DNA of 64,000 bases, taken from the IMG/VR virus record IMGVR_UViG_3300037484_000491, positions 1 through 64,000 of that record. One strand, 5' to 3'. The notes below the pieces were generated by a model. That model searched no databases, was not told the origin of the DNA, and saw nothing but the letters and a program-made list of their open reading frames with translations. The position numbers were made by a program, and so were the translations under genes. Shown in pieces: positions 21,003 to 64,000 of this stretch; position 1 is the stretch's first letter; the number at the start of each line of letters is the position of its first letter. The DNA comes from a virus.

Positions 21003-21003
21003 A

Positions 21004-33031: not shown

Positions 33032-33292
33032 TTACTTATTTTTATCTATTGACACAAAATCAACACACTTACTCAATGATACTTTACCTTCAGATATAAC
33101 TATTTTATCATTTGATTCAAGAATCTTTTTTATATCAATTTTTGACACATCATTTATTAGATTTTTGTCTTTGTAATCTTTATATAATATTACGTTGACA
33201 TCATCGTCTGTATATATGGTACATTTCTCCGCCAATATAATTTCCTTAGTAGATTCAATCAATGCAACCCCCAAATTGAGTATCTTTTTCAT
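33032..33292 (-). CDS. hypothetical protein (86 aa)
   Basis: ORF track; abuts neighbours without a gap. Confidence 0.4.
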   Translation of the reverse strand: MKKILNLGVALIESTKEIILAEKCTIYTDDDVNVILYKDYKDKNLINDVSKIDIKKILESNDKIVISEGKVSLSKCVDFVSIDKNK

Positions 33293-34695
33293 TATGCTCC
33301 AAGATTAACTGTTGTAATTGATTTTGTTGATTTTAATGTTGTAACCGCATCTGTTACTTCTGACGGAGGAGAAGCATAATCAGCATAGTCATTTATTGTA
33401 ACAGTTGCTGGAAGTGTGCCTGTTCTATTGGTCATTTGTGTTAATAATGTAACCATATCAGAGGAACTCATCTTTGTATCTCGGTAATTTAAAAGTGAGA
33501 ATGTTCCGATATTGCCATTATTGCCAACATCCAATCCTGTCCATGCTATCGAAGTACCTGAAAGATACAGAGTTATAAGTCCTGTTGGTAATGCTCCTGA
33601 GTATGTCCATGCTATCGAAGTACCTGAAAGATACAGAGTTATAAGTCCTGTTGGTAATGCTCCTGAGTATGTCCATGATATCGAAGTACCTGAAAGATAC
33701 AGATATGTGAGGCCTGTTGGTAATGCTCCTGAGTATGTCCATGATATCGAAGTACCTGAAAGATACAGATATGTGAGGCCTGTTGGTAATGCTCCTGAAT
33801 ATGTCCATGATATCGAATTCCCTGAAAGAAGCAGAGTTGTAAGTCCTGTTGGTAATGCTCCTGAATATGTCCATGATATCGAATTCCCTGAAAGATACAG
33901 ATATGTGAGGCCTGTTGGTAATGCTCCTGAATATGTCCATGATATCGAAGTACCTGAAAGATACAGATATGTGAGGCCTGTTGGTAATGCTCCTGTTAAT
34001 TCACTTGTGCCTGTAATTCTAAGTTTAGTCAATGGCATTTTACCAATAATAGAAGTTATCTTAGACGCATTAGTCGTACTCGTCCAGCCATCAGTTATAC
34101 TATTTCCCCATTCCGTTATTTTTGAAATATCGCTGAATGTCATCAGTGCAGTTCCGGCAGTGCATTTCAAGTAGATAGTTCTCAATGCACCCGATGTAAT
34201 TGTCCATGTTGCACTTTCATTTAAAGTCCCCGCTGCATCTGAATAGAACTTAGCATTTGCACCAAGAGTAACAGTAATATCTGAACTTACTGTCATCTTT
34301 AAAGTACTTACACCTGCTCCCGTACCCGTTGAAGTGAGAAGCATGGTATAGAGAACATTATTAATAACATTTGCAGTTCCTCCTGTCTTTACAAAAGTAA
34401 CTACCGGTGTATCACCGTAAATAAATGGAAGCGATACTGTTAATGTCAGAATTTTATTTGTGGCATCTCTTTCAAGTAATGTAATTGTTTTCCCCGCAAT
34501 AGTAAAATCAGAGGCGACTACTTTTGTGTCTGCCTTACTAAAAGTCAATACTACTTTAGTTGGCTCAGCATCTTCTACTACTGCGGAAGTTAATGAGTTC
34601 CATAGTGTCGTCCAGTAACTACTCCACGAAAAATCACTCGCCACAACACTCCTTACAACGGAACTTACTACACCCCTTACTACTGGTTTACTCAT
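33292..34695 (-). CDS. leucine-rich-repeat (LRR)-type virion-associated protein candidate
   Basis: Seven 22-aa units GALPTGLTYLYLSGTSISWTYS (L-x-x-L-x-L-x-x-x-x-I pattern) after an Ig/beta-rich N-terminal half; immediately downstream of the portal gene. Confidence 0.6.
   Translation of the reverse strand: MSKPVVRGVVSSVVRSVVASDFSWSSYWTTLWNSLTSAVVEDAEPTKVVLTFSKADTKVVASDFTIAGKTITLLERDATNKILTLTVSLPFIYGDTPVVTFVKTGGTANVINNVLYTMLLTSTGTGAGVSTLKMTVSSDITVTLGANAKFYSDAAGTLNESATWTITSGALRTIYLKCTAGTALMTFSDISKITEWGNSITDGWTSTTNASKITSIIGKMPLTKLRITGTSELTGALPTGLTYLYLSGTSISWTYSGALPTGLTYLYLSGNSISWTYSGALPTGLTTLLLSGNSISWTYSGALPTGLTYLYLSGTSISWTYSGALPTGLTYLYLSGTSISWTYSGALPTGLITLYLSGTSIAWTYSGALPTGLITLYLSGTSIAWTGLDVGNNGNIGTFSLLNYRDTKMSSSDMVTLLTQMTNRTGTLPATVTINDYADYASPPSEVTDAVTTLKSTKSITTVNLGA
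33539..34000. repeat. 7 x 66-nt near-identical tandem repeat encoding the LRR units
   Basis: Units start at 33539, 33605, 33671, 33737, 33803, 33869 and 33935; only a few substitutions between units. Confidence 0.9.
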
Positions 34696-38950: not shown

Positions 38951-40477
38951 TTATGTGATTCTCCTTGCAATTTTCTTTGGTACTAATTTAGAAAACCCCC
39001 CCGACAGACTATCTGTGATATCTTTGTGCGTACTATAAGGAAAAAACCTTAATTCATTTATTACCGCCATGTTCCATCCTGCTTCAACCATTAACACATT
39101 CCCATTATTCACCTGAACAGAAAATGGATCTGCCCTGAATACTTTGTTCCCTGTCGGTCTTTCTTTATACACACTGAACCCTGCCAAATTCCTAATTGTC
39201 CCTTCCGCACTTTCAACCCCACTGCTACCAGGCTCTTGTTCCATCCACACGATCACTGCACTGCCATCCGACATTGCAGTATTTAAAATCATTTGTTCTC
39301 TTACTTCAGAACTCCATTGCCCCCTCACAATATTCTCAATAACCCATTTACCATTATACAATAAGGACATTTTTGCCCCTACCGTGTATGCACCCCCACC
39401 TTCCGTTCCTGCTTTGTCCCAATACCTGACAGTTTTTACAATCTGATTTAAAGGAGGCAATGCGTTTAACATGATAAACCGGTCAACCTTAAACATCCCT
39501 CCACCAGGTGGCACAGGATTCTGTCCTATCTGTCCTGCATAACCATATTGGCCAAGGTCTGTCTCCAAATCTGTTAAAACTTTCCAAGGTAGCCTATTGG
39601 CATCCAAAAGGTCATTTACATAAAATTTCTTTAGTTCCGGGGGATTGAGATATTTCTCATAATTTCTGATCTCACCCGGAAGACTGATATGTTTAATATT
39701 TTCTTTTTGTTTGTTAAGAATGTGTCCCGCCGGATCGTCCGCATGAAGTCTCTGCATTATTAATATGGTAGGTGTGACATCTTTGTTAGTTTTACGTGTT
39801 GGCAGGGATTGCTCCATCCATTGATTTGCTATACCAAGTTGCACATCAGAAGCAGCCTGTGTAGGATTCAAAGGATCATCTATTATTAATATGTCCCCAT
39901 GAAATCCTGTAATAGTGGCCCCTACTGATGTACTATATCTTCCCCCACCTAAAATTTGCCTCTGTGATCTTGTTTTATTTAAACCATCTACACGTTTAAC
40001 AATTTTAAAATTTGATTTTGTGTCTTTATCTTCTTTAATTCCAATTTCGGGATATATTGATTGAAACAGATCACTTTTAACTATGTCACGACAATAGTCG
40101 GCTCCTTCGAGTGCAAGTTTTTCAGAATAACTTGCTGTAATAAATTTCATCCAATGCCATTTTGACCAGCACCAAACAGGAAATATTACACTGACACACA
40201 GCGTTTTGGTCGTGCCAGGTGGCACATTTATAATTAGATCATAAAGTCTGGGTTCTCTTTTAGCAACTCTTTCCGTAACCTTTTCAAGTTCATTGCAAAG
40301 GTATTCGATGTGCCAGTTTCCCTGGAAGTTGTGAGGGCTGACTATTGGCCAGAAGCATTGAAGAAAGTGATAGAGGCTCCTATCGTTAAGTTCACGAGTT
40401 ACTTTAATCGGGTTTTTAAAAGCTTCCCTCATAAGCTCCTCTTTAGAAAGAGTAGTGCTAACCTCCTGCTCCCTCAT
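38951..40477 (-). CDS. terL: terminase large subunit
   Basis: INVPPGTTKTL (Walker A-like), DILIIDDPLNP (Walker B), and C-terminal nuclease-domain pattern YWDKAGTEGGGAYTVG. Confidence 0.85.
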   Translation of the reverse strand: MREQEVSTTLSKEELMREAFKNPIKVTRELNDRSLYHFLQCFWPIVSPHNFQGNWHIEYLCNELEKVTERVAKREPRLYDLIINVPPGTTKTLCVSVIFPVWCWSKWHWMKFITASYSEKLALEGADYCRDIVKSDLFQSIYPEIGIKEDKDTKSNFKIVKRVDGLNKTRSQRQILGGGRYSTSVGATITGFHGDILIIDDPLNPTQAASDVQLGIANQWMEQSLPTRKTNKDVTPTILIMQRLHADDPAGHILNKQKENIKHISLPGEIRNYEKYLNPPELKKFYVNDLLDANRLPWKVLTDLETDLGQYGYAGQIGQNPVPPGGGMFKVDRFIMLNALPPLNQIVKTVRYWDKAGTEGGGAYTVGAKMSLLYNGKWVIENIVRGQWSSEVREQMILNTAMSDGSAVIVWMEQEPGSSGVESAEGTIRNLAGFSVYKERPTGNKVFRADPFSVQVNNGNVLMVEAGWNMAVINELRFFPYSTHKDITDSLSGGFSKLVPKKIARRIT

Positions 40478-41018
40478 TTTCCGGTATTTGTTTTTTATGG
40501 ATGCTTTCCATCAAAGAAAGTTCAGCCACACTTAAAAGTTTATAGTCTATGGTGCAATTATTAAAAGTGTTCATGTTTCCCGAAGTTGCAGTCTTATAAG
40601 ATTCGGACCATGTTTCAGGTTGTCTTGCAGAGAGCCACTTTATTTGTGCTCTTGATTCACCCTTGTAGAATTTTTTTACTTTCACCCTCACGATTTGTTT
40701 ATTCACTACATGTATTTCTTCTTCTTCTACCCATCGGTCAATACAATTGAGATAATGTGATTCTGCCACTCGCATATCCGCCATTGCTTTTCCTCTTTTG
40801 ATAGCATCAAAAAATTGTGGTCTTTCCCTTTTCCAAATGTTAAGTGTAACCGTAGAGATTCCAAGAATATCGCAGATATGTGTGTCAAGTGCTCCAAGGC
40901 AAGCCAGTTTAAACACGAGAAGGGTGTTTGAGTCTTTCCACAGTGTTTCTCTTTCAAGGTAAGCAGCCTTAGCTTTCTCTTGCAGGTATTCAAGTTTTCT
41001 GCCCCTGGTAAGTATCAT
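40458..41018 (-). CDS. terminase small subunit candidate (HTH)
   Basis: First gene of the late arm; 20-nt overlap with terL; HICDILGISTVTLNIWKRERPQFFDAIKRG HTH pattern. Confidence 0.55.
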   Translation of the reverse strand: MILTRGRKLEYLQEKAKAAYLERETLWKDSNTLLVFKLACLGALDTHICDILGISTVTLNIWKRERPQFFDAIKRGKAMADMRVAESHYLNCIDRWVEEEEIHVVNKQIVRVKVKKFYKGESRAQIKWLSARQPETWSESYKTATSGNMNTFNNCTIDYKLLSVAELSLMESIHKKQIPENEGAGG

Positions 41019-41188
41019 ATTAAAAAATTTTGTCTAATTTATACCTTTTATTTATATACATATGTGTATTTTTACATACATTCTCGGAAAAAGTTTTTAA
41101 AATATTCCTATTTAACATAATAAATTAATTAGAAGACAATAGATTAGGGGTTGTATTGGTTGCTTATTTTTATTGAATCTAAATAACA

Positions 41189-41216
41189 AGCAAATCAGAA
41201 GTTAAGACTGCTAAAA
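41189..41216 (+). repeat. 28-nt dispersed motif AGCAAATCAGAAGTTAAGACTGCTAAAA, copy 1
   Basis: Exact 28/28 identity with 42255-42282 and 45711-45738. Confidence 0.95.
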
Positions 41217-41231
41217 ATGTTTATATTTGGG

Positions 41232-41254
41232 AAATTAATTGTATAATACAGAAA
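41232..41254 (+). promoter_or_regulatory. 23-nt element AAATTAATTGTATAATACAGAAA containing an extended -10 (TGTATAAT), copy 1
   Basis: Exact copy at 54991-55013. Both lie just upstream of a start codon (41261, 55044). Confidence 0.5.
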
Positions 41255-42163: not shown

Positions 42164-42254
42164 CTCTAAATTTACTTTCCCAACATTTAAAAATTTTTAC
42201 AATTTTTTAGAACTCACTCCCTATAAGAGATTCTGAAATTCCTTAAGTAGTTTT

Positions 42255-42282
42255 AGCAAATCAGAAGTTAAGACTGCTAAAA
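42255..42282 (+). repeat. 28-nt dispersed motif, copy 2
   Basis: Exact. Here it is extended into a hairpin, TTTTAGCA (42251-42258) / TGCTAAAA (42275-42282). Confidence 0.95.
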
Positions 42283-43218
42283 CTCCCTATGCAAAATTAA
42301 AATTTATATAATCTAAAGTTGAAGCTTGCTTCAGATTGAGAAATCACTTTCTAAGTGATTAAAATTCATACGTTTATAGAGGGGTGGTTCTGAGGGTTGT
42401 TACTTTTCCATCGGAGGACTTAGGTAGCCCCCTTCTCTTCTATTTTACATAATAATAATTATGAGACTTATTATTTACACATACATCATTGTAACATAAT
42501 ACATTACCAATATTCCTGCACTATTATACTATGTTAATAGCTTACTTTGTCATATTACCATAACTTATTTACTGATCAGGGCATTCAAATCTGATGCAAC
42601 TATGCTTGATGTGGCATAACCTTAAATTTTGCCTTAACATACTATTAACTTTATTTATTATGTTACTAACTGATCTTTGCATGGTATAATACAGCTCACA
42701 TTATATTTCATGGTATAAGTTCAGTTAATTATCTTAACACAGGGTGATTTTACATATATTACTAATTATCAACATATTAACATATATTGAGAATTAGATA
42801 AGTTAAAGTTTTACAATTATTGTAAATATTTTTGTAAATCGTATTGTCATGTCAATTATTCTTTTTATCTTTGATTTGTTAAGTCGTTGCAGTGATGCCT
42901 CGCAACTTAACTGAGCGTTACGAGGATTAACGCCTACGCAGGAAACGTATATTCTGTACCAGTGTACCCTGGGACAACATGTCAAAAGTACTAAATGCCG
43001 GGATACGGCTGATATATTGACAAAGATATATATTCTTCATTTTGCCTTGTTTTCATGTGATTGTGATTTATCCACACATGAAACGACCTATTTTTTAGCG
43101 AGCGAAATAGATATATATCTGATAGATATTTTTTATGATTTAGAGGTGTTACAGGCGTGATGCTGAGAATCGGATTCTTAACACCCCACTAATTTTATTA
43201 ACCTCAAATTTTAAAATT

Positions 43219-43392
43219 ATGAAACCAAATGATTTTTTAAATGAACAATGGAATGGAAAAATATTTGATCAAAAATATTATGCTCCTTCAGAAAGTTATG
43301 AATTTTATGACAATAAAACTGATACATATTACAATGTACATGGAGAATCATTAAAAAATCCTGAAGTGTACACACCTTTTGAAAATGAATAA
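43219..43392 (+). CDS. hypothetical protein (57 aa, below track threshold)
   Basis: Hand translation: MKPNDFLNEQWNGKIFDQKYYAPSESYEFYDNKTDTYYNVHGESLKNPEVYTPFENE*. Confidence 0.35.
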   Translation: MKPNDFLNEQWNGKIFDQKYYAPSESYEFYDNKTDTYYNVHGESLKNPEVYTPFENE

Positions 43393-43395
43393 AAT

Positions 43396-43453
43396 TTGCT
43401 AATCAGGTCGTTTGTTCAGATATTCACAACTAAAACCAGGTAATTATGAAAAC
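43396..43453 (+). repeat. 58-nt duplicated leader + start codon, copy A (partner 43772-43829, 2 mismatches)
   Basis: ttgct[a/g]atcaggtcgtttgttcagatattcacaactaaaacca[g/a]gtaattATGAAAAC. Confidence 0.9.
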
Positions 43454-43712: not shown

Positions 43713-43771
43713 AAATCATGAACTATATTATTTATTTCCCGCTTTATTTGTTTTGCCTGGTTACATTAACT

Positions 43772-43829
43772 TTGCTGATCAGGTCGTTTGTTCAGATATT
43801 CACAACTAAAACCAAGTAATTATGAAAAC
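43772..43829 (+). repeat. 58-nt duplicated leader + start codon, copy B
   Basis: See copy A. Confidence 0.9.
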
Positions 43830-43962
43830 TTCAGCAACTATTCAGCAACTAAATGAAGCCCTGAATTTCATTAACCAAAAATTTGATGATAACATACAAT
43901 TTAAGGAAATAAAACAAATTTCTGCAATTGGTAGATTAAAATATAGTGCTTATCTTTACTAA
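43822..43962 (+). CDS. hypothetical protein (46 aa, below track threshold)
   Basis: Hand translation: MKTSATIQQLNEALNFINQKFDDNIQFKEIKQISAIGRLKYSAYLY*. It shares leader and MKT start with 43446, and its C-terminal peptide with the mini-ORF 5262-5321. Confidence 0.35.
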   Translation: MKTSATIQQLNEALNFINQKFDDNIQFKEIKQISAIGRLKYSAYLY

Positions 43963-43973
43963 GTAATCAAAAA
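43928..43973 (+). repeat. 46-nt dispersed repeat, copy B (partner 5287-5332)
   Basis: See copy A. Confidence 0.85.
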
Positions 43974-44057
43974 ACAAAACGTGTTAATTTTACTTTGAGG
44001 GTAAAAAACTAATTCAGGACCTTCCGGCACAAACAACATTGTTATATTTATGCTAAA

Positions 44058-44085
44058 TTTTAGCAGTCTTAAAATCTGATTTGCT
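44058..44085 (-). repeat. 28-nt dispersed motif, copy 4 (inverted, 26/28)
   Basis: Plus strand ttttagcagtcttaaaatctgatttgct, versus the reverse complement of the motif ttttagcagtcttaacttctgatttgct. Confidence 0.85.
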
Positions 44086-44119
44086 TATATTATTGATTAT
44101 TAACCAAAAGTAAAACAAA

Positions 44120-45595: not shown

Positions 45596-45710
45596 AAAAA
45601 ACAAAAAAGAAATACTATTGCCGATATTGTAAAAAAAAATTTGATACTCTTTACATGTCTGAAATTTGTTTTAATCTTGATTTAAAAGTATTAGAAAATG
45701 AAAAACCGGA

Positions 45711-45738
45711 AGCAAATCAGAAGTTAAGACTGCTAAAA
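45711..45738 (+). repeat. 28-nt dispersed motif, copy 3
   Basis: Exact 28/28; 87 nt upstream of the SNF2 helicase start. Confidence 0.95.
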
Positions 45739-45824
45739 AAATAATTGTTAATTCAAAAGGTTTCTTCGATTTTGACTAACAAATGTAAAAAGTTATATAT
45801 GTATATATATTAATAAGTAAATGT

Positions 45825-47454: not shown

Positions 47455-47901
47455 ATGAATTACGATTTGTTACTTAGAAAACTTGCATGGGATTTCTCGC
47501 AAAAGTCAGGACTTGACATTGATGATCTGTTTCAGGAGGCCTCCCTGGCTTATCTGGAAGCCGTTAGAACGTATGATCCTGCAAAAAGCAAGATTAGCAC
47601 CTATGTCTGGCATTGTGTTCACAACAGACTCACAAATTACCTCAGGGACTATCAAAAGTATTCCGCTGAATCTCTTGAAGTTGTTACAATCACAAAAACA
47701 ACAAATGAAACTGCTTACTTTGAAAATTTAAGTGATACAGCTTCAAAAATTGCAAAAGTTGTTTTGTCTTCACCTGAAAACTTTGCTTGTCTTACTCAGA
47801 ATGAAGCAAAGAAAAGAATCAGAAACACACTCCATAAAGAAGGTTGGAGTATTGAAAAAATATTTGCAGGGTTTAAAGAATTGCAAATGATTTATAGTTA
47901 A
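47455..47901 (+). CDS. sigma-70-family (ECF-like, short) sigma factor candidate
   Basis: DIDDLFQEASLAYLEAVRTYDPAKSKISTYVWHCVHNRLTNYLR matches the sigma region 2 pattern. At 148 aa, region 4 is short or divergent. Confidence 0.5.
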   Translation: MNYDLLLRKLAWDFSQKSGLDIDDLFQEASLAYLEAVRTYDPAKSKISTYVWHCVHNRLTNYLRDYQKYSAESLEVVTITKTTNETAYFENLSDTASKIAKVVLSSPENFACLTQNEAKKRIRNTLHKEGWSIEKIFAGFKELQMIYS

Positions 47902-47911
47902 TTCAAAATAA

Positions 47912-48226
47912 ATGTGTATAATACAAAAATTAAGAAAAATGAAAACAATCATTAAATTAATCATCCGTTTCTTTATCCTTATCCGAAATTTTTTATTTGG
48001 TAAGAAAGTAAAAGAATCTGTAAAATTGGAAAACACTTCTGTTCCAATGGTTAAAATATTAAATCAACCTGTTATTCCCAAACACAACAACCGCAGGATA
48101 ACAAGAGGGAGATTTGTTCAATACGTAAATATGGGAGAAGGAAGAACAAGACCAATTTTTTATGGTGCTAAAAATAATTATTATAAAAAGCAGGAAGAAA
48201 TCTACTCTGATAGCAATAGAACATAA
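47912..48226 (+). CDS. hypothetical basic protein (104 aa)
   Basis: ORF track. Confidence 0.35.
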   Translation: MCIIQKLRKMKTIIKLIIRFFILIRNFLFGKKVKESVKLENTSVPMVKILNQPVIPKHNNRRITRGRFVQYVNMGEGRTRPIFYGAKNNYYKKQEEIYSDSNRT

Positions 48227-48311: not shown

Positions 48312-49772
48312 ATGAAACAATTAACCCATTTAACCACAAAACAAGAAGCCTTGATTTCCGTTGTAAGACAGGAGTGGCTTGATTTATTTTTTAAAAATAA
48401 AGGAAATTTGAATAAAATAGTTTTTGAAGAACAAATAGAATGGCTTTATAAAAAATTAAATTATAAAAAACCATTTATTTGGTATTGTGATTCTCCTATG
48501 ATGTGTCAATTAATTATAAATATTCTAAAAAGTACACTTAATATTGATTGGCTAAACATTGGTTCAAACATTAAGTCAAACATTGATTCAAACATTGGTT
48601 CAAACATTAAGTCAAACATTGAGTCAAACATTGGTTCAAACATTTGGTCAAACATTTGTTCAAACATTTGGTCAAACATTTGTTCAAACATTGGTTCAAA
48701 CATTGATTCAAACATTTGGTCAAACATTAGGTCAAACATTAGGTCAAACATTGGTTCAAACATTAGTTCAAACATTGATTCAAACATTTGGTCAAACATT
48801 GGTTCAAACATTGGTTCAAACATTGATTCAAACATTTGGTCAAACATTAGGTCAAACATTGGTTCAAACATTGGTTCAAACATTGGTTCAAACATTGGTT
48901 CAAACATTGAGTCAAACATTAAGTCAAACATTAAGTCAAACATTGGTTCAAACATTAATTCAAAAATTAGGTCAAACATTGGTTCAAACATCAGGTCAAA
49001 CATTGGTTCAAACATCAGGTCAAACATTGATTCAAACATTTGGTCAAACATTGGTTCAAACATTAATTCAAACATTAATTCAAAAATTAGGTCAAACAAA
49101 CTAATTTATGAACCTTTTTCTTATTACGGTAATATAACCGATTATGGGTGGGTTGCTTTTTATGATTATTTTATGAGGTTGGATTATTTTAAATTCAATT
49201 GGTCTGATTTTATTTGTTTTCAAAAATTATTAAAATCAGGAGTCTATGATTTTGTGGCTTTTAAAGATATTCTTTTTGTTTCTTCATGCCCAATAGAAAT
49301 CTATCAAAATTCTAATAATAGATTACACAACACAAACAAACCGTCTGTTCTTTTTAAAGATGGGTATTCTGTTTATGCAATTCATGGAAGAATTCTTCCA
49401 TCTTGGATATGGGAGAAAAAAGAAACAATTACGAAAGAAATGTTTATTAATGAGAAAAATGCAGAAATAAGAGGAGGAATTTATTCTGTTCTTGGAGAAA
49501 AGAGAATGATGGAAATATTAAGAGGAATAGAAGTTGACAAACAAATTATTCAACATTTAAACGATAAAGTTGAAATTATTAAACTTTACAAAACAAAAGA
49601 AACTTTTCCCGAAATAGATAATAAATCATTGGCTTGGGTGAAATTCACTTGCCCTTCTACTGGAACTGATTATTTAATAGCTTGTGAACCTCATTTTACT
49701 AATGCTAAAACAGCCGCTGCTTCACTTAGTATATTTAAAAAAGAAGAATATCAATTTGATTTTAGAACTTAA
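48312..49772 (+). CDS. repeat protein: N-terminal domain, 45 S-N-I-x tetrapeptide units, ~220-aa C-terminal domain
   Basis: Translation reads LNIG SNIK SNID SNIG ... SNIN SKIR. From memory the flanking domains resemble the uncharacterised family in which [DS][QN][VI]x tetrapeptides are reiterated (DUF6745-like?); unverified. Confidence 0.65.
   Translation: MKQLTHLTTKQEALISVVRQEWLDLFFKNKGNLNKIVFEEQIEWLYKKLNYKKPFIWYCDSPMMCQLIINILKSTLNIDWLNIGSNIKSNIDSNIGSNIKSNIESNIGSNIWSNICSNIWSNICSNIGSNIDSNIWSNIRSNIRSNIGSNISSNIDSNIWSNIGSNIGSNIDSNIWSNIRSNIGSNIGSNIGSNIGSNIESNIKSNIKSNIGSNINSKIRSNIGSNIRSNIGSNIRSNIDSNIWSNIGSNINSNINSKIRSNKLIYEPFSYYGNITDYGWVAFYDYFMRLDYFKFNWSDFICFQKLLKSGVYDFVAFKDILFVSSCPIEIYQNSNNRLHNTNKPSVLFKDGYSVYAIHGRILPSWIWEKKETITKEMFINEKNAEIRGGIYSVLGEKRMMEILRGIEVDKQIIQHLNDKVEIIKLYKTKETFPEIDNKSLAWVKFTCPSTGTDYLIACEPHFTNAKTAAASLSIFKKEEYQFDFRT
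48552..49098. repeat. ~45 x 12-nt tandem repeat (TCA AAC ATT NNN)
   Basis: Direct reading. The first three codons are almost invariant, including synonymous positions. The fourth codon varies (ggt, aag, gat, gag, tgg, tgt, agg, agt, aat). Confidence 0.95.
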
Positions 49773-54990: not shown

Positions 54991-55013
54991 AAATTAATTG
55001 TATAATACAGAAA
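54991..55013 (+). promoter_or_regulatory. 23-nt element with extended -10 (TGTATAAT), copy 2
   Basis: Exact copy of 41232-41254; 30 nt upstream of the ParB-like start codon. Confidence 0.5.
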
Positions 55014-55043: not shown

Positions 55044-56351
55044 ATGAATACAAAAACAGAATTGCAAGTAGTAGGAAACGAACTTATCAAAGTAATGGAT
55101 CTTTATGACAAAGATGAAAATGGAGACAGGGTAGATATATCTTTACCAGAAAATGAAAAAGAGCTTGAAAAGTTTATCAAAACAGCAATGGATCAGATTG
55201 ACCCTGTTCTTGACTCGTTCACAAAGAAAACTTTAAAAATTCTTAAAGAGTATGGATGTGATATTTCAGTTTTGAAAGAAGCACCTACGGAAGCAAACAC
55301 CATTGAACAGGAAATTGAAAATGCAGAAACTTTAAAAGAACTTAAAGAAATTGCTCAATCTGAATTCCAGTTTAAATCAATTCGGGGAAAACTTGCAAGT
55401 TTTAAGGACATTGATAAGTTGCGAAAAGAAATGATGTGGCTTTTTACTGATGCAAAGCCAACAAAAGTAAAAGAACATGAATTGTTTTTAGAAAAAGAAG
55501 AAACTCAGGAGGAGGTTGCAGAAAGACTGCATGAAAAACTTGAAAAGAAAGAAATTAAAAAGTCAAAAATTGAAAAGGTAAAAGAAGAAGTTGCAGATGA
55601 AGATGAGAATTATCCTGATGACACGGAACTTCTTGGGCTTGGGACAATGAAAACAGAAGATATTGTTACAATAAAACCTTTTAACAGTTTATTTTCAATT
55701 GATGATAAGGTATTTGATGCTGTGTTGAAGGACATGGAAGACAATGGATATGACTACGCCTTTCCTATTATTGTATGGGGTGATGTTGTGATAGATGGTC
55801 ATACAAGGCTTGAAGCAGCGGAAGTCTGCAAAATAGCAGAAATTCCTATTCTCAGGAAAGAGTTCAAAGATGAAAAAGAGGCATTGGAGTATGCTATTCA
55901 TAACCAGAGGGACAGGAGAAACGTATCTGATGCTGAACTTCTCAGGTGCATTGAAGCTATTGATGCTCCGATGACTAAAAAAGAGGCAGGTGCAAAGGGG
56001 GGAGCAAGCAAATCAGAAGTTAAGAAAGCTTCTGAACCGGTGAAATCACATAAAGAAACAGCTAAGAAACTTGGAGTAGGTGAAACTAAAGTAACGGATG
56101 CAAGAGTTGTCTTGGTTGATGAAGAGGCAAGAAAAGAAGTTGAAAGTGGAAAGAAGACAATTTCAAAAGCTGCAAAAGAAGTAAGGGAGAAGAAAGCTGT
56201 TGATAAACCTGCAAAAGCAAAACCTGAAAAGAAAAAGTTACCAAAAACTAAAAAAGAGTTTAAGAAGTTTCTTGAAGATTTCTTAAGAATAGTAGTTGAA
56301 TTTGGTGATGCAATTGATATTGAAGGGTATCTTAAAGAGTTTGAGGAGTAG
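55044..56351 (+). CDS. ParB/Srx-domain protein with C-terminal HTH and long acidic N-terminal region
   Basis: IVWGDVVIDGHTRLEAAEVCKIAEIPI (ParB N-domain DGHHR-type motif) and ETAKKLGVGETKVTDARVVL (HTH). Confidence 0.7.
   Translation: MNTKTELQVVGNELIKVMDLYDKDENGDRVDISLPENEKELEKFIKTAMDQIDPVLDSFTKKTLKILKEYGCDISVLKEAPTEANTIEQEIENAETLKELKEIAQSEFQFKSIRGKLASFKDIDKLRKEMMWLFTDAKPTKVKEHELFLEKEETQEEVAERLHEKLEKKEIKKSKIEKVKEEVADEDENYPDDTELLGLGTMKTEDIVTIKPFNSLFSIDDKVFDAVLKDMEDNGYDYAFPIIVWGDVVIDGHTRLEAAEVCKIAEIPILRKEFKDEKEALEYAIHNQRDRRNVSDAELLRCIEAIDAPMTKKEAGAKGGASKSEVKKASEPVKSHKETAKKLGVGETKVTDARVVLVDEEARKEVESGKKTISKAAKEVREKKAVDKPAKAKPEKKKLPKTKKEFKKFLEDFLRIVVEFGDAIDIEGYLKEFEE
56007..56025 (+). repeat. 28-nt dispersed motif, copy 5 (partial: first 19 nt exact, 22/24 overall) inside the ParB-like CDS
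   Basis: agcaaatcagaagttaaga|aagct versus agcaaatcagaagttaaga|ctgct. Confidence 0.85.
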
Positions 56352-56634: not shown

Positions 56635-56997
56635 TTAGGAAAAGTTCTTTGATATTAAAATAATTTGTTTACATTTGCCCCCATAATTGTGTTAGCACCA
56701 CAAAATTGGAGAAAAATGAAAAATGTAATTAGGCAAAATATTGCCTCTGTCAAAGTCCAAGCTCTTATAAGTCTAAACTCCTTATTTGTGGTGCTACTTG
56801 GACACGACAGAGGTTCTTAAAACTACCAATCAACTTTGGTAGAGTCAAAGCCAAATATCAAAAGATACACTTACAAGAAACCAATGTTTGGAACAGACAA
56901 TGAAATTAAAATGTTTTTCTGGTTGCTTCTTTTTCTTCTTTTCTTTTTGTCCTTTTTCTTTTCTTCTTTTTCTAAAAAAGTTTAAGAATTAAAGTAT

Positions 56998-57954
56998 ATG
57001 TTTGAAATAAATAAAATATATAACGAGAATTGTTTAACAACAACAAAAAGAATTTCTGACAATTCTATTGATTGCATCATAACTTCACCCCCTTATTGGC
57101 AATGCAGAGATTATGGTTATTCTGAACAATGGGGGTTAGAACCAACTTTTCAAAAATATTTAGAACATTTTTGGCAATTTATGGATGAGGCTTACAGGAT
57201 TTTAAAACCAAAAGGAACTTGTTTTATTAATTTGGGGGATACATATAATACCAAATCAGGGAATATGAATCCGGAAAATCATAAAGATACAATAAATGTT
57301 TGTATGAATAATTCTTTAATTTCAAAAAATATTTACACCAAAGATAAAAATTTACCAAATAAATGCCTTTTGCTTCTTCCACACAGGTTTGCTATAGGTT
57401 GTATTGATAGGGGTTGGATAATGAGAAATGATATAATTTGGGCAAAAAGAAATGGTATGCCTGAAAGTGTAACAGACAGGTTCTCTAAAAAACATGAGTA
57501 TTTCTTTTTTATGGTTAAGTCTGAAAAATATTATTTTGATTTAGATTCTATCAAGGATCAAACAACAACAAAAGATAAAAGTATAAGAAACAGGGATATT
57601 ACAAAATTAAATAATACTCCCGGCAGAACAAAAATGAAGGGGTTGAAAGAAAATAATTATGATTTTAAAAATCCCGGTTCTGTTTCTGATTTTTGGGATA
57701 TACCCACACAACCAAATTCAGAAGAACATTATGCAAGTTATAATGAAATGTTATTGAAAAAACTTGTTTTAGGGGGTTGTCCTGAGGGTGGTGTAATTTA
57801 TGACCCTTTTATAGGCTCAGGTGAAACAGCAATAACAGCAATTCGATATAAAAGACAATTTCTTGGTTCTGATGGAAATAAAAAATATTGCAGAATAGCA
57901 GAACGAAGAATAGAACAACATTTAGCACGTCCAAAATCTTTTTTTAATATATAA
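56998..57954 (+). CDS. DNA N6-adenine/N4-cytosine methyltransferase (beta class, SPPY)
   Basis: IITSPPYW catalytic motif N-terminal, and a C-terminal SAM motif VIYDPFIGSGET. Confidence 0.8.
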   Translation: MFEINKIYNENCLTTTKRISDNSIDCIITSPPYWQCRDYGYSEQWGLEPTFQKYLEHFWQFMDEAYRILKPKGTCFINLGDTYNTKSGNMNPENHKDTINVCMNNSLISKNIYTKDKNLPNKCLLLLPHRFAIGCIDRGWIMRNDIIWAKRNGMPESVTDRFSKKHEYFFFMVKSEKYYFDLDSIKDQTTTKDKSIRNRDITKLNNTPGRTKMKGLKENNYDFKNPGSVSDFWDIPTQPNSEEHYASYNEMLLKKLVLGGCPEGGVIYDPFIGSGETAITAIRYKRQFLGSDGNKKYCRIAERRIEQHLARPKSFFNI

Positions 57955-58969: not shown

Positions 58970-59581
58970 ATGGAAGGCTTCTTCACAATCAAAGATACCC
59001 AATCAATTTCACAAATTAATGGTCGTTCACTTTCCTGTGCTTCTTGTGGATTATATCAGCATTGCACAAGTCCAAGAATGAAGCCTTATGGCAACTTCAA
59101 AAAGGGTATTTTAAATATTGGGGAATTTCCAATTGATGCAGATGACAAATTGAATATACCATTTCAGGGAAGAACAGGTAAATTTTTGCAAAACACTTAT
59201 AGCAAACTTGGAATTGATTTATTTGAAGACTGCCTCAATATGAATGCTGTTAAATGTTATTCTAACAAACCTCCTACAAACTATCAGGTGGACTGTTGCC
59301 GGGGACTCGTGTTAAAAACTATCCATGAATATAAGCCAAAAGTTATTATCCTGTTTGGAAACATTGGAGTTTACAGTTTGATAGGGTCCAGGTGGAAGAA
59401 AGACTTGGGCATTATTGCAAAGTGGAGGGGTTGGACTATTCCTGATCAGGATTTGCAAACCTGGGTTTGTCCTGTTTTTACTCCGAGTTATGTAGAGGGT
59501 GCTTTGGAGAAAGACAGGTATTGTGTGGAAGAAGTTATTTGGAAAAATGATCTAAAACAAGCATTTGAATTGATATGTTAG
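58970..59581 (+). CDS. uracil-DNA glycosylase superfamily (family 4-like) protein
   Basis: CASCGLYQHC Cys cluster, then GILNIGEFPIDADDKLNIPFQGRTGKFL (compare GEAPGxxEDxxGxPFVGxAGxLL) and NAVKC. Confidence 0.6.
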   Translation: MEGFFTIKDTQSISQINGRSLSCASCGLYQHCTSPRMKPYGNFKKGILNIGEFPIDADDKLNIPFQGRTGKFLQNTYSKLGIDLFEDCLNMNAVKCYSNKPPTNYQVDCCRGLVLKTIHEYKPKVIILFGNIGVYSLIGSRWKKDLGIIAKWRGWTIPDQDLQTWVCPVFTPSYVEGALEKDRYCVEEVIWKNDLKQAFELIC

Positions 59582-60372
59582 AATTAAATAAAATATATAA
59601 TGAGGATTGTTTAATTACAATGGCAGGGATGCCAGATAATTATATTGATATGATTTTTACTGATCCCCCTTATGGGCATAATAATAATAATAATGGGGAT
59701 ATGGCCTCCCGATGGGAGTCCATATTTGAGGGCAAGAAGGATAAATATATACCCGAAAAAGATTGGCGACCTATTGCAAATGATGGCATAGAGGCAAATG
59801 ATTTAATACAAAAATGTTTTAAAGAATGGTACAGAATATTAAAACCGGGGAGCTGCTGCTGCTGCTGCTGCTGCGGCGGCGGCGGCCCTGATCCACAATT
59901 TGCGAGATGGTCGCTTTGGTTAGATGAGGCTTTTAATGGTGGATTTAAGCACATGATAATATGGGATAAAGGGCCAATGGGTATGGGGCATCATTATAGA
60001 AGAAGTTATGAAACTATACTTGTGGCACAAAAGAAAGGAGCAGCCTGTAAATGGTATGCAAATAGCAAAAATATTGAAAATGTTATCCGGCCTGGAATGT
60101 ATGGAATAGGTAAAATAATACCACAAGCAAATCAACATCCAACTGAAAAACCAAGTACACTTGCTAAATTATTTATTAAACTACATTCACAAGAAAATGA
60201 TATAATTTATGATCCTTTTGTTGGTAGTGGATCTACTTTGCAAGCTGCTATTGAATTGGATTGTAATTGGATAGGCTCAGAAATAGATCAAAAATATTGT
60301 GAAGAAGCAAATAAAAGAATTAGAATAATTTTAAGTCGTATTAAACCTTTTTTTAAAGAAAGAATATTATAA
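59575..60372 (+). CDS. DNA N6-adenine/N4-cytosine methyltransferase (DPPY) containing a Cys7-Gly4 run
   Basis: IFTDPPYG catalytic motif and a C-terminal IIYDPFVGSGST SAM motif; RILKPGSCCCCCCCGGGGPD. Confidence 0.8.
   Translation: MLELNKIYNEDCLITMAGMPDNYIDMIFTDPPYGHNNNNNGDMASRWESIFEGKKDKYIPEKDWRPIANDGIEANDLIQKCFKEWYRILKPGSCCCCCCCGGGGPDPQFARWSLWLDEAFNGGFKHMIIWDKGPMGMGHHYRRSYETILVAQKKGAACKWYANSKNIENVIRPGMYGIGKIIPQANQHPTEKPSTLAKLFIKLHSQENDIIYDPFVGSGSTLQAAIELDCNWIGSEIDQKYCEEANKRIRIILSRIKPFFKERIL
59854..59886 (+). repeat. trinucleotide microsatellite (TGC)7(GGC)4 inside the methyltransferase CDS
   Basis: Direct reading. Confidence 0.95.
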
Positions 60373-60979: not shown

Positions 60980-61468
60980 ATGATAAGATTACATAATTCA
61001 AATATTGAATTAATTGATTTAAATAGAAAATATGCACAAAAGGGACTTATTTTTAAACCAAAAGGAGTGTGGTATTCAATAGATAATGAATGGTTAGATT
61101 GGTGTATTAATGAAATGCCACATTGGATAAAACAAAATATTTTTGATTTAGAAATAGACATAAATCAAATTTTAAATCTTAAAACAAAAAAAGATGTGCT
61201 TTTATTTAATAAAAAATATAAAACAACACCTTTTAATGAAAAATATATCTCATATATTGATTGGGAATTAGTTTCAAATGAATATAAAGGCATTGAAATT
61301 CAAAATTATCATCAAATTAAGTGGGGAATAACTGATAAAATCTGGCCTACTTGGTTTTATGGTTGGGATATATCCGGAGGTTGTCTATGGGATTTGTCTG
61401 TGATAAAAGGTATTAAAAAAATGAAAACCTCAGAAGAATATTTAAAACTTTTAATTGTTAATGATTGA
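60980..61468 (+). CDS. hypothetical Trp-rich protein (162 aa) between the exonuclease and polymerase genes
   Basis: ORF track. Confidence 0.45.
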   Translation: MIRLHNSNIELIDLNRKYAQKGLIFKPKGVWYSIDNEWLDWCINEMPHWIKQNIFDLEIDINQILNLKTKKDVLLFNKKYKTTPFNEKYISYIDWELVSNEYKGIEIQNYHQIKWGITDKIWPTWFYGWDISGGCLWDLSVIKGIKKMKTSEEYLKLLIVND

Positions 61469-64000
61469 TATGCGAGTTAACCCAAGAACTGAAGAAGCAG
61501 CCGACTTATTTTTACAGGGTTCACTTGCTTTGGCAAGGGCTGAGATGGCAGGTATCCATTTGGACGTGCCATACTGTGAACGACAGAAGCGACTTCTTAC
61601 AAATAAGATAAACCAATTAGAAGATGAGTTTAAGCAAACCACATTTTACAGGCATTGGGAACATTCTGTCAATGGGGTTGTAAACATCAATTCTGACACA
61701 CAGTTAAGGCATTTTTTATATGATGTTAAGAAATATAAAATTTCAAAATACACATATTCAGGTCAGGGGGCAACTGATGCAGAGGCGTTGTCACAATTAG
61801 GTATCCCTGAACTTGACATTCTTGCACAGAGGGATAAACTGAAAAGGTTGAGAGATGTAAACATAGATGGGTTTTTAAGAGAACAAGTCAATGGTGTGAT
61901 TCATCCGTTTTTTAATTTGCATTTAGCACATTCTTACCGATCTTGTATTGCTAAAGGAACTCTTGTTTTAGTGGTTAGAGATTTTTTAAAGTATCCTAAA
62001 GGAGTTCCAATTGAAGAAATTAAAGAGGGTAATTTTGTTTATTGTTTTGATGATAAATTAAATCCGGCAATTAGAAAAGTTCTTTGGGCGGGTAAAACAG
62101 GACATCGAGAAGTTATTAGAGTTCATTATTCTGTAAAAGGAAAACACAAAAATGGTTATTTGGATGTTACACCAGAACATTTAATAAGATTAATTGATGG
62201 TAACTATGAAGAAGCACAAAATTTAGTAGGTGATTTTAGAAAACCTTGGGAAAGCAATAAATTGCAAAAAATAAGGACACTTTCTTGTGCAAGAGTAGAT
62301 GATAAATTAAATTTCACAGGACATTTAAAAAGCGGTAAAGGAATACATGAACATAGATTAATTTATAAAGAATTGATTGGAGAATTAACAAAAAAAGATA
62401 TAATTCATCATGAAAATGAAATTCATTTAGATCATACACCAAGTAATCTAAAAAAAACAAATCTTCCCGCTCATAGCAGTTATCATTCAAAAAATGTATC
62501 AGAAAAAAGAAATCAAGAAAGGATTCAAACATTAAAAGATAATAGATATAAAATAATTTATAAGTCTGGATTTGAAAATTCAAATAGTTTAAAATTATCT
62601 AAATTTAGTTGCTATCGGTTACTTATTAAAGTTTTTGGACATTTAACAAAAGTAGTTTATGATTTTGAATCTTTTAAAAAATGTCTGGAATATCATAATA
62701 TTGATTTTAGAGATGTACTTATTAGATTTGATAAAAATGGAAACTATATTTGGAAATCAAAGTTAAAAGAAATATCAAAATTAGGAAGGGCAAAAGTTTC
62801 AAAAATAATTGGTTGTGGGAGTGAACGATTAATCAAATTATATGGTTTATATAATATTGATACAAAGAGAAAATGGGGAAATCAATTTGGTTCTTTTGTT
62901 CCGGGAAATCATAATATAACTAAAATAGAATGGATTAAAAAAATTGTTGATGTTTATGATATTGAAGTAGAAGAATTTCATAATTTTTTTGCAAATGAAA
63001 TTTGTGTTCATAATTCATCAAATTCTCCTAACTTCCAAAATATCCCAATCAGGGATGAAGAATCCATGAAAGTTTGCAGGAAGGCACTTTATCCAAGACC
63101 GGGACACCAGTTGTTAGAAGTGGATTTTAAAGCTATTGAAGTTGCAGTAAATGCCTCAATTAATAAAGACACAAATCTTTTGAAATATTGCAGGGATCCA
63201 AAGTCAGATATGCACGGGGATATGGCAAAGCAGATTTTCAAATTGGACAAATTTGATGCAGTGAACCATGATATTTTGAGACAGGCTACTAAAAATGGAT
63301 TTGTATTTCCTGAGTTCTATGGGGATTATTATGTAAATTGTGCAGAGAACATGGCTTGTAATTGGGGAAAACTTGGAAAAGGAAGATGGAAAGAAGGGGA
63401 AGGGATTCCTTTGGATGGTGGGAACCTATCTGACCATTTAATTTCAAAGGGTTTTATTTCATTGAAGAAGTTTGAAGATCATATACAAAAAATTGAAAAA
63501 GACTTTTGGCAAAACAGGTTTCCTGAATATGATGAATGGAAAGACAGATGGTACAATATTTATAAAAAGTACGGATATTTTGACATACCAACCGGATTTC
63601 GTTGTTCAGGAGTATTAGATAAAAAACAAGTATGTAATATTCCTGCACAGGGGTGTTTGCAAGGAGACGTAAAAGTATTTACAATAAATGGGTTTGTTGC
63701 TATAAAAGAACTTGTTAATATCAGAACTAAAATTTGGACTGGGTTTAATTGGGCAGAAGCAATTGGATTAAATAAAGGGGAATGTCAATTGGCAGAAATT
63801 GAATTAAATTCTGGGGTAACAATAAAGTGTGATATAAGACACAGATTAAAAAATGAAAATAATGAATGGGTTGATTTTTCTGATTTAAAAATTGGTAATT
63901 ATGTAGCGTTACCCAAAAATATAACGCCAATTGAACCTTCTAAGGAAATGAATTGGGCTTTTATTTTTGGGTTTATAATTGGGGATGGGTGCTTATATTC
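61461..64000 (+). CDS. family A DNA polymerase (polymerase domain), interrupted by two inteins; 3' end outside window
   Basis: By hand translation the frame is open from ATG 61461 to the window edge. It is not in the ORF track because no stop is reached. Extein motifs: HSYRS|SSNSPNFQNIP (compare TGRLSSSDPNLQNIP), LLEVDFKAIEV (motif A), RQATKNGFVFPEFYG (motif B), NIPAQG|. Confidence 0.8.
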   Translation, partial: MIDMRVNPRTEEAADLFLQGSLALARAEMAGIHLDVPYCERQKRLLTNKINQLEDEFKQTTFYRHWEHSVNGVVNINSDTQLRHFLYDVKKYKISKYTYSGQGATDAEALSQLGIPELDILAQRDKLKRLRDVNIDGFLREQVNGVIHPFFNLHLAHSYRSCIAKGTLVLVVRDFLKYPKGVPIEEIKEGNFVYCFDDKLNPAIRKVLWAGKTGHREVIRVHYSVKGKHKNGYLDVTPEHLIRLIDGNYEEAQNLVGDFRKPWESNKLQKIRTLSCARVDDKLNFTGHLKSGKGIHEHRLIYKELIGELTKKDIIHHENEIHLDHTPSNLKKTNLPAHSSYHSKNVSEKRNQERIQTLKDNRYKIIYKSGFENSNSLKLSKFSCYRLLIKVFGHLTKVVYDFESFKKCLEYHNIDFRDVLIRFDKNGNYIWKSKLKEISKLGRAKVSKIIGCGSERLIKLYGLYNIDTKRKWGNQFGSFVPGNHNITKIEWIKKIVDVYDIEVEEFHNFFANEICVHNSSNSPNFQNIPIRDEESMKVCRKALYPRPGHQLLEVDFKAIEVAVNASINKDTNLLKYCRDPKSDMHGDMAKQIFKLDKFDAVNHDILRQATKNGFVFPEFYGDYYVNCAENMACNWGKLGKGRWKEGEGIPLDGGNLSDHLISKGFISLKKFEDHIQKIEKDFWQNRFPEYDEWKDRWYNIYKKYGYFDIPTGFRCSGVLDKKQVCNIPAQGCLQGDVKVFTINGFVAIKELVNIRTKIWTGFNWAEAIGLNKGECQLAEIELNSGVTIKCDIRHRLKNENNEWVDFSDLKIGNYVALPKNITPIEPSKEMNWAFIFGFIIGDGCLY
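61944..63014 (+). mobile_element. intein 1 (357 aa) with HNH endonuclease domain
   Basis: Starts CIAKGTLVLV and ends VYDIEVEEFHNFFANEICVHN, followed by Ser+1. Internal HEHRLIYKEL...IIHHENEIHLDHTPSNL...AHSSYH (HNH). Removal restores the conserved PolA motif. Confidence 0.75.
63654..64000 (+). mobile_element. intein 2 (N-terminal part; LAGLIDADG type), continues beyond the window
   Basis: Cys1 follows the conserved NIPAQG (CLQGDVKVFTINGF...). A LAGLIDADG-like AFIFGFIIGDGCLY lies at the window edge. Confidence 0.6.

Follow-up and report, generated by a model that had tools for sequence, protein, structure and literature searches.

Dispersed 24-bp dyad sites and a candidate KorB-like regulator of the ParB family in an uncultured phage

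The locus

The window analysed here is a 64-kb stretch of DNA (positions 1 to 64,000 of IMG/VR record IMGVR_UViG_3300037484_000491) that makes up most of a phage-like contig of about 74.7 kb and 33% G+C, from an uncultured phage. Late and structural genes occupy the minus strand from about 6.5 to 41 kb, and early and replication genes run on the plus strand from 41.2 kb to the window end. Among the latter is a gene for a ParB-like protein, and scattered over the window are six copies of a 24-nt core sequence, AGCAAATCAGAAGTTAAGACTGCT, one of them inside the ParB-like gene itself. Comparison with related phages, referred to below by handles such as L001, indicates that this arrangement is a conserved and co-evolving feature and not a curiosity of one genome; the ParB-like protein is considered as the candidate binder of the sites.

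The predicted protein begins with a family-specific region (residues 1-136), continues with a ParB/Srx N-domain (about 198-318) that carries the motifs DGHTRL and HNQRDRRN, a disordered linker (318-333) and a ParB-type helix-turn-helix (HTH; about 335-387), and ends in a short helical part. AlphaFold2 gives a predicted local distance difference test score (pLDDT) above 90 for residues 198-318, of about 90 for the helices at 335-387 and below 50 for the linker, which is also the least conserved part of the protein across its homologues. An earlier note on this DNA had read the protein as a ParB N-domain plus HTH. That reading is upheld by a PHROG match (PHROG 12047, 'ParB-like partition nuclease', E=2.2e-12), by a profile of 22 homologues that finds the pNOB8 ParB N-domain (8e-6) and Spo0J (4e-3) in PDB, and by Foldseek, which aligns about 190-220 columns to C-terminally truncated ParB, Noc and KorB (N-terminal domain plus HTH). 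Foldseek also finds PadC and sulfiredoxin, PHROG methyltransferase family 498 matches the N-domain as well, and the single sequence of the window protein does not reach Pfam PF02195. As modelled, the N-domain has the ParB-CTPase fold of the ParB/Srx superfamily and is followed, as in canonical ParB, by a central HTH. The HTH region has the pattern K.TAK.LG....KV.DAR.VL...A..EV..GK.(T/S)I..AA, which we take to resemble that of Spo0J. The canonical nucleotide-binding motifs of ParB are altered: box I lacks Q.R (KPFNSLF), box II reads DGHTRLEAA and keeps only GxxR, and box III reads HNQRDRRN. The ParB-CTPase fold binds cytidine (CTP), adenosine (ATP) or guanosine (GTP) triphosphate in other members (PMC12704722), and the ParB-like protein could conceivably still bind a nucleotide despite its altered boxes.

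The surroundings of the gene vary. Repeat arrays (hexamer or 12-nt units; GGTCAC..., ACGGGA...) adjoin it in three relatives (Table 1), where they could represent open reading frames (ORFs) of about 70 amino acids with dipeptide repeats (RS, VR/VK, TG), or else iteron- or centromere-like DNA; no repeat array lies next to the gene in the window. The contig L096, which comes from another sample and is 99.8% identical to the window, carries the same copy of the site in its ParB-like gene. The sole indel between the two is a 23-nt deletion (56659-56681), with a single-nucleotide polymorphism at 56691; the deletion overlaps a canonical promoter-like sequence of the host type (TTTG ... TACATTTG at 56670), which precedes the methyltransferase gene by about 330 nt.

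The earlier note reported that the 19-mer AGCAAATCAGAAGTTAAGA recurs exactly within the ParB-like gene (56007-56025), with 22 of 24 positions matching overall, and that such a match is not expected by chance. Both statements stand: the preceding A even extends the exact match to 20 nt (56006-56025), the 19-mer occurs in the window five times exactly and once with two mismatches where shuffled sequences predict 0.02 occurrences, and the 24-nt core has six matches at up to three mismatches against a chance expectation of 0.00. The note also counted four full copies, all intergenic and near early gene starts. There are in fact five, the ParB-gene copy (56007-56030) being the sixth, and one of the five (site E) lies inside a late gene. 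A weaker match at 15295-15322 (75%; within the 1112-amino-acid late ORF 12611-15949) was taken as chance, and the exact 24-mer has no match in IMG/VR viral contigs.

Most copies sit in or near the control region and early gene starts (Table 1). Site A lies between the terS start, 170 nt away, and the ATG of a radical-SAM gene, which follows after 73 nt, and is the sole window copy followed by a TATATTTG box; site B lies 91 nt past the radical-SAM gene, where it opens a stretch of about 1 kb with no ORF. Five of the six window copies are co-directional with transcription and only site C is opposed to its neighbouring genes, with the proviso that orientation calls for near-palindromic versions of the site hang on small asymmetries. 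Sites B and E are identical over 28 of 28 nt and share 8-bp inverted arms; the other window copies keep shorter arms.

Two copies are embedded in coding DNA. Site F encodes residues 322-329 (SKSEVKKA) of the predicted disordered linker between N-domain and HTH, which agrees with the position that the earlier note had given it. Site E is co-directional with its glycosyltransferase gene and encodes residues 252-261, part of the variable linker between the two domains. The same note took the reading frames to differ between copies and concluded that conservation is at the DNA level; the premise fails, as both coding copies are read in the same frame (SKSEVK), but the conclusion is supported by the relatives described below.

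Table 1. Positions and versions of the features discussed, in the window and in related phages
Feature	Genome	Position	Strand	Description
Large terminase subunit gene	window	38951-40477	-	late region
Small terminase subunit gene (terS)	window	40458-41018	-	
Site A	window	41188-41217	+	full copy; 242-nt divergent region between terS (-) and the first + gene
Site B	window	42254-42283	+	full copy; 8-bp inverted arms TTTTAGCA...TGCTAAAA
Site C	window	44057-44086	-	two inner mismatches; gap 43963-44119 between small early ORFs
Site D	window	45710-45739	+	full copy; 30 nt identical to site A; 115 nt upstream of SNF2 helicase gene
Site E	window	20287-20316	-	full copy; inside late two-domain glycosyltransferase ORF 19683-21068 (-)
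Site F	window	56006-56030	+	in ParB-like gene; first 20 nt exact, core 22/24 (AGCA-N16-AGCT), A-rich tail lost
Sigma70_r2 sigma factor gene	window	47455-47901		
TGTATAATA element	window	54999-55007	+	45 nt upstream of ParB-like ATG
TGTATAATA element, other copies	window	41240-41248; 47915-47923		
TGTATAATA element	L176	12347; 20049		
TGTATAATA element	L190	12370; 21296		
TGTATAATA element, as TTTATAATA	L001	12349; 13187; 21326		
ParB-like gene	window	55044-56351	+	435 amino acids
N6/N4 methyltransferase genes	window	56998; 59575		after ParB-like gene
Site version	L001		+	AGCAATTTTAAAGTTAAAAATGCT; seven copies in the early operon, all +, most of them occupying the gap from a stop codon to the next start; one inside SNF2 gene
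Site version	L008			AGCAATATTGAAAAGAAAAATGCT; two copies
Site version	L112			AGCAATTTTTTTCTCAACAATGCT; one copy, ~190 nt upstream of terS
Site version	L109			AGCAAAACTGATTCCAGTGTTGCT; two copies, ~0.9-kb non-coding region from terS to first early gene
Site version	L092			AGCATTTTGATAAATCAAAATGCT; three copies, two upstream of terS and one in early region
Site version	L176			AGCATTTTTGAAATCAAAATAGCT; four copies, each co-directional with neighbouring genes
ParB in-gene site, codons orthologous to site F	L175			AGCAAAACAGAAAGCAAAACTGCT
ParB in-gene site, codons orthologous to site F	L088			AGCAATTTTGAAAACAAAATAGCT
ParB in-gene site, codons orthologous to site F	L179			AGCAATTTTGAAATCAAAACAGCT
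ParB-adjacent repeat array	L176	20432-20659		upstream of ParB-like gene
ParB-adjacent repeat array	L179	~2398-2620		upstream of ParB-like gene
ParB-adjacent repeat array	L092	20466-20699		downstream of ParB-like gene

The site family in related phages

Seen across relatives, the window motif is apparently one phage's version of a family-wide dyad, AGCA-N16-TGCT, in which the inner 16 nt are phage-specific. In several relatives (L092, L109 and L176) the version is a good 24-bp palindrome. The earlier description of the motif as weakly palindromic therefore suits the window version, which keeps the arms only (beyond the longer arms of sites B and E), but does not carry over to the family. One or two copies lie between the terminase and early genes, more stand ahead of early gene blocks, and a few sit inside coding DNA such as that for disordered linkers; in L001 some copies directly abut the next ATG (TGCT-ATG). 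Co-directional copies account for 7/7 in L001, 5/5 in L176/L088 and 2/2 in L179. Because the arms and their spacing are conserved while the interior is phage-specific and often palindromic, the sites look like operators of a phage-encoded dimeric protein: fixed-spacing arms, dyad symmetry and a phage-specific interior would be the signature of a dimeric, sequence-specific DNA-binding protein.

The pair formed by sites A and B probably corresponds to the control-region pair of L092, L109 and L008, here split by insertion of the radical-SAM gene. Since relatives have two close copies there without that gene, its flanking by sites is best explained by insertion between pre-existing sites, and the idea that the gene is a cassette carried between direct repeats was set aside.

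Copies within a genome change together. The two-domain build of the glycosyltransferase is conserved and its linker varies greatly. In L126, whose protein is about 71% identical, the same codons carry TTTTAGTAGTGTGGAAGTTAGAACCACTAAAA; both arms have changed together there, from AGCA/TGCT to AGTA/CACT, whereas the window copy is identical to the intergenic copies of the window. (A fusion scar was considered for the glycosyltransferase copy and rejected: the two-domain protein is ancestral and widespread, its linker is variable, and L126 keeps the orthologous site.) The ParB-like gene behaves similarly. L176 is the early region of the same phage as the ParB locus L088, and its intergenic consensus agrees at 22 of 24 positions with the in-gene copy of L088, which is the only match to that consensus in the 21-kb ParB-centred locus (expected 0.00). 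In L179 the in-gene copy and an intergenic copy 190 nt downstream of the ParB-like gene also agree at 22/24. With the window and L175 copies, these matches indicate that at least four lineages keep the in-gene site at orthologous codons and that, wherever a comparison is possible, it follows the version of the site found elsewhere in that phage. In one ParB subgroup the linker peptide KSNFE(I/N)K(I/T)AS is a plain translation of the site. The in-gene copy is absent from L001, L092, L174 and L090. Taken as a whole, the motif behaves like a DNA site recognised in trans, with copies that evolve together in each genome.

Two further observations concern the control region. After site B, about 0.9 kb (42284-43218) is free of ORFs and contains G+C-richer patches and TAnnTTTG boxes at 42827 and 42866; relatives have a comparable non-coding stretch of 0.7-1.3 kb from terS to the first early gene. 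It has no Rfam match, and could hold an origin, a packaging site, early promoters or an RNA. In L109, a 12-mer, GACTGCTAAAAA, lies at about 6937-6950 in the control region upstream of terS, between the two palindromic sites; it is identical to the right arm and tail of the window motif, which may be chance.

The candidate binding protein

The earlier note suggested that the motif may be a KorB-type binding site of the ParB-like protein. We tentatively retain that suggestion: from sequence comparison the protein is the best candidate for the binder of the sites, acting as a KorB-like regulator, and the conservation and co-evolution of the in-gene copy speak for it, as does the distribution of the gene. 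A scan of IMG/VR for the invariant ParB peptides HNQR[DN]RRN and G[YF]DxA[FY]P[IV][IV] returned contigs of L001 and L092. The near-complete relatives L115, L116 and L118 were not among its results, and no dispersed dyad site was found in 10 kb spanning the control and early regions of each of these three. Dispersed sites are thus present in 5/6 ParB-positive phages (the window, L001, L092, L176 and L179, with L190 as the exception) and in 0/3 ParB-negative ones, a co-occurrence that is suggestive of ParB as the binder. When all window ORFs were compared by BLAST with ten relatives, the ParB-like ORF was the only non-universal one common to all site-bearing genomes. TerS, the sigma factor and the DnaD-like initiator were discarded as binders, as their phyletic patterns do not match that of the site; the sigma factor and TerS occur in relatives with and without it, the sigma gene being absent only from the examined parts of L116 and L118.

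Several observations weigh against this assignment. First, the co-occurrence rests on few, phylogenetically related genomes, and L190 (P0014 phage) is ParB-positive yet has no AGCA-type site in 21.6 kb that include the control and early regions; L090, which overlaps L190 and continues downstream, has none either. Second, the HTH recognition helix (KVTDAR.VL) is near-invariant across the family, and the site varies widely in its 16 inner nt; the helix could therefore account only for the conserved AGCA/TGCT arms. Third, the site is 24 bp long with arms 20 bp apart, and the known sites of ParB, Noc and KorB are 13-16 bp. Fourth, the CTP-pocket motifs are kept only in part (DGHTRL for GERRxR, no QPR box, HNQRDRRN for ENLQR), and among solved structures the pNOB8-type ParB N-domain comes closest in sequence; pNOB8 uses a separate adaptor, AspA, to read its centromere. 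Fifth, other phage ParB-like proteins activate DNA-modifying enzymes (PMC13229309), and modification genes are neighbours here as well: methyltransferase genes follow ParB in the window, and in relatives the neighbours of ParB-like genes include TAGT or queuosine genes. Finally, the in-gene location is not unique to ParB, because the glycosyltransferase gene has a site too.

Alternative explanations

The main rival is that some other dimeric regulator encoded by the phage, for instance a small early protein with no detectable homology, uses the sites as operators, and that the copy in the ParB-like gene is merely tolerated or regulates downstream genes. We regard this as a real possibility, though a lesser one than ParB. 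Dyad sites and co-evolution do not name the binder, and further genes have sites within them, namely the glycosyltransferase gene (with an orthologous site in L126) and the SNF2 gene of L001; the lack of a site in the ParB-positive L190, and an invariant ParB helix alongside a varying site, would be readily understood if another protein were responsible. Small phage regulators are known to use such geometry: p4 of phage phi29 binds inverted repeats about 15 bp apart in an early/late control region. Nine small early ORFs of the window have no significant match (six to PHROG and Pfam, three to Pfam only), so a fast-evolving regulator could have escaped the BLAST screen. Against this stand the result of that screen, in which no other window ORF is common to all site-bearing phages and absent elsewhere, the codon position of the ParB in-gene site, which at least four lineages share, and the co-occurrence of the ParB-like gene with the sites.

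A second alternative, raised in the earlier note, is that the sites are parS-like centromeres through which the ParB-like protein partitions a plasmid-like prophage. A ParB-type fold with an HTH and a site within the parB-like gene would both fit; in Bacillus subtilis a parS site lies inside spo0J, and the linear plasmid-prophage N15 has dispersed centromere sites. However, Pfam and PHROG scans of ORFs from the window (64 of about 74.7 kb) and the gene tables of six relatives (about 20 kb each) contain no ParA family, which makes partition very improbable. The ParA-binding motif, (L/F/I)G(K/R)G(L/F/I) as defined in PMC12704722, does not occur in the protein, which has LGLGT instead, and the scanned ORFs of the window gave no sign of an integrase, a repressor or any further lysogeny gene. 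The sites themselves cluster at the early/late control region and early gene starts and are nearly all co-directional, so transcription control fits them better than segregation. The ParB-like protein is accordingly not a canonical partition ParB: it has no ParA partner in these scans, its candidate site is a 24-bp dyad and not a 16-bp palindromic parS, and the GERRxR box is replaced.

A third reading, of slightly lower probability still, takes the motif as a promoter served by the phage sigma factor or by other phage-specific machinery, with AGCAA as a -35-like and TGCTAAA as a -10-like box about 16 nt apart. The two conserved boxes with fixed spacing, the co-directional copies counted above and the Sigma70_r2 protein encoded by the phage all invite it, as does L095, which has a canonical TTTG-N20-TAnnTTTG promoter upstream of SNF2 where the window has site D. 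Yet the good palindromes of L092, L109 and L176 are unlike promoters, the sigma gene is present in site-free relatives, and the TGCT-ATG copies of L001 leave no room for a transcription start. By sequence, then, the site appears neither to have the asymmetric boxes of a sigma-factor promoter class nor to track the sigma gene. The canonical Bacteroidetes promoter (TTTG-N19-21-TAnnTTTG) was also compared and fits neither strand of the motif. A better candidate for a sigma promoter is a T-rich tract followed by TGTATAATA, because in the window, L176, L190 and L001 the element closely follows the sigma gene and recurs 20-45 nt ahead of the ParB start. It resembles an extended -10 element distinct from the host TAnnTTTG type, likely represents a separate (middle) phage-specific promoter class driving ParB, and probably serves the phage sigma factor.

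The least probable reading is that the motif is an RNA or single-strand element (terminator, processing site or hairpin) or a recombination boundary for module shuffling: site B folds at -8.8 kcal/mol (z -3.6), the L176 copy at -7.5 followed by a U-tract and the L109 copy at -9.5, but site A (-1.9), L001 (0.0) and L092 (-1.9) show that the copies do not share a conserved folding potential, the site is followed by an A-rich tract in the window and by a T-rich one in L176, and Rfam has no match; likewise, the radical-SAM gene, not found at this position in relatives, does sit between two direct copies and two L176 copies form a perfect 41-nt inverted repeat, but relatives have two close control-region copies with no inserted gene, and a passive scar would not co-evolve inside the ParB and glycosyltransferase coding regions. 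A terminator or hairpin was rejected for its inconsistent folding, and a tyrosine-recombinase core site for its central spacers of 2-4 bp, which are too short, and because no recombinase was found.

Other features of the window

Early plus-strand genes encode radical-SAM, SNF2 helicase, Sigma70_r2, Toprim, DnaD-like, AAA_25 helicase and ParB-like proteins, and further ones encode two N6/N4 methyltransferases, a sliding clamp, a UDG-family protein, a 3'-5' exonuclease and a family-A DNA polymerase. Many relatives from metagenomes, 60-79 kb in size, have this gene order. At their 5' ends (56996-57101 and 59573-59678) the two methyltransferase genes are 75% identical over 106 nt, so they are paralogues. 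In place of N6/N4 methyltransferases, the ParB-like gene is followed by a C5 methylase in L175 and by TAGT glycosyltransferase genes in L090; L095 carries a queuosine/7-deazaguanine gene cluster as well as a ParB-like ORF that is only distantly related (31% identical). A tblastn search of cultured phage records gave no match to the ParB-like or sigma protein, and the nearest cultured phages are very distant (SNF2 about 30-36% identical in Tenacibaculum, Cellulophaga, Bacteroides and Thermus phages). The hosts of the subgroup of about 70-79 kb are probably Bacteroidota, because L095 carries canonical Bacteroidetes-type promoters, TTTG-N20-TAnnTTTG. The window contains no tRNA and no Rfam family.

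The family-A polymerase ORF (61461-64000, plus strand) exceeds 848 codons, continues past the window end and probably contains an intein (...SYRS/CIAKGTLVL...); its homologues have 824 amino acids with a weak Intein_splicing match in L088 and just 462 in L090. A 46-nt repeat, 96% identical, occurs at 5287-5332 (after ORF 4523-5098) and at 43928-43973 in the early region, adjoining site C. Another of 65 nt, 94% identical, occurs at 43389-43453 and 43765-43829, each time ahead of a small early ORF; it looks like a duplicated unit of promoter and translation start, and its second copy has a TAACTTTG box.

Coding tandem repeats are found at three places. ORF 48312-49772 (plus strand) contains about 55 tandem 12-nt units (AAACATTGGTTC-like; 48434-49100), a tetrapeptide repeat (SNI[GWDKR]), followed by DUF6745, and analogous coding arrays with other periods occur in L176 (15037-15466; 9 nt) and L118 (4959-5453; 15 nt). 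ORF 4523-5098 (plus strand) has 12-nt units, GGATGCTGCTTG, at 4804-5074 that encode W-D-A-A-type repeats, and the late-region ORF 33292-34695 (minus strand) has seven 66-nt coding units at 33472-34065.

A possible mechanism

If the ParB-like protein is the binder, its dimers would occupy the 24-bp sites and might spread or slide along the DNA from there. As a KorB-like global regulator the protein could shut off or re-time early transcription and control the region of the early/late switch. With a copy in its own gene, the protein would stay in genetic linkage with a site and may regulate itself, and embedded sites would be tolerated where the protein permits, that is, in disordered linkers. 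Joining these elements leads to a fuller picture that we consider possible but doubtful as a whole: a ParA-less ParB-fold protein of an apparently lytic Bacteroidota phage would be a KorB-like regulator that loads at 24-bp dyads, possibly as a nucleotide-gated clamp, and times the early-to-late switch; one loading site would be written in its own linker codons, so that mosaic recombination would carry protein and site along as one, and the sequence of the site and the specificity of the protein would co-evolve rapidly between phages.

ParB-family proteins are now seen as nucleotide-gated DNA clamps with roles beyond segregation (KorB, VirB, BisD and Noc), and the phage members of the family are numerous and almost uncharacterised. 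The phage family described here amounts to a natural experiment, with phages that have their own versions of the 24-bp site, in-gene copies, and relatives lacking both gene and sites. Protein-site specificity, co-evolution and regulatory logic become testable with a few purified proteins and oligonucleotides. The linker is also a clear case of a DNA-level signal that dictates the amino-acid sequence of a disordered region.

Comparison with known systems

The closest known system is the KorB-OB network of plasmid RK2. KorB is a CTP-dependent regulator of the ParB family with long-range gene silencing (PMC11790492), and VirB and BisD are further ParB-family proteins that act as regulators (PMC10770331, PMC12409273). 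The likeness extends to the architecture of the protein (N-terminal domain plus HTH, with a Foldseek match to KorB lacking its C-terminal domain, 8qa9, at a TM score of about 0.58 on the target) and to the layout, in which several palindromic sites are scattered, in part close to promoters and in part remote from them or within genes. This dispersed-operator layout of control region, early starts and in-gene copies is seen in the window, L001, L092 and L176. The half-sites are also comparable, TTTAGC/GCTAAA in OB and TTTTAGCA/TGCTAAAA here. The systems differ in that the sites here are 24 bp with arms 20 bp apart and OB is a 13-bp palindrome, and in that the element here is a phage that seems to be lytic and has neither a ParA/IncC partner among its scanned genes nor a recognisable KorA. 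In the phage protein, moreover, DGHTRL replaces the GERRxR box.

Spo0J offers a second parallel, a binding-type site inside a ParB-type gene, with a position that in these phages is kept in at least four lineages. Here no ParA was found in the scans, the site lies in linker codons and changes with the phage's own version, it has 24 and not 16 bp, and its likely function is transcription control and not segregation. The pNOB8 ParB N-domain (PDB 5k5a/5k5d) is the best match of solved structure (E=8e-6) and shares DG(Y/H)TRL, but pNOB8 has a separate adaptor and a different C-terminal part, whereas the phage protein has a Spo0J-like HTH.

The P1 C1 operators and the stoperators of mycobacteriophage L5 are dispersed operator regulons, and together with the sites of phi29 p4 they resemble the present family in having many copies of one phage-specific site, in short intergenic gaps and mostly oriented along transcription. 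The phi29 sites add short inverted arms about 15 bp apart in a divergent early/late control region. None of these regulators is ParB-like, however. P1 and L5 are temperate phages with immunity repressors, unlike the phage of the window, among whose scanned ORFs there is no repressor or integrase, and the L5 stoperators are asymmetric 13-mers, whereas the sites here are 24-bp dyads.

Lastly, phages encode ParB-like activators of DNA-modifying enzymes, among them a 5mYOX-associated ParB (PMC13229309) and ParB-methyltransferase fusions (PMC12704722). They share with the present protein a phage-encoded ParB-CTPase fold beside DNA-modification genes, as in L090, where TAGT is next to ParB. Those activators have no obvious DNA-binding domain, whereas the ParB-like protein described here combines its N-domain with an HTH and is accompanied by a family of co-evolving sites.

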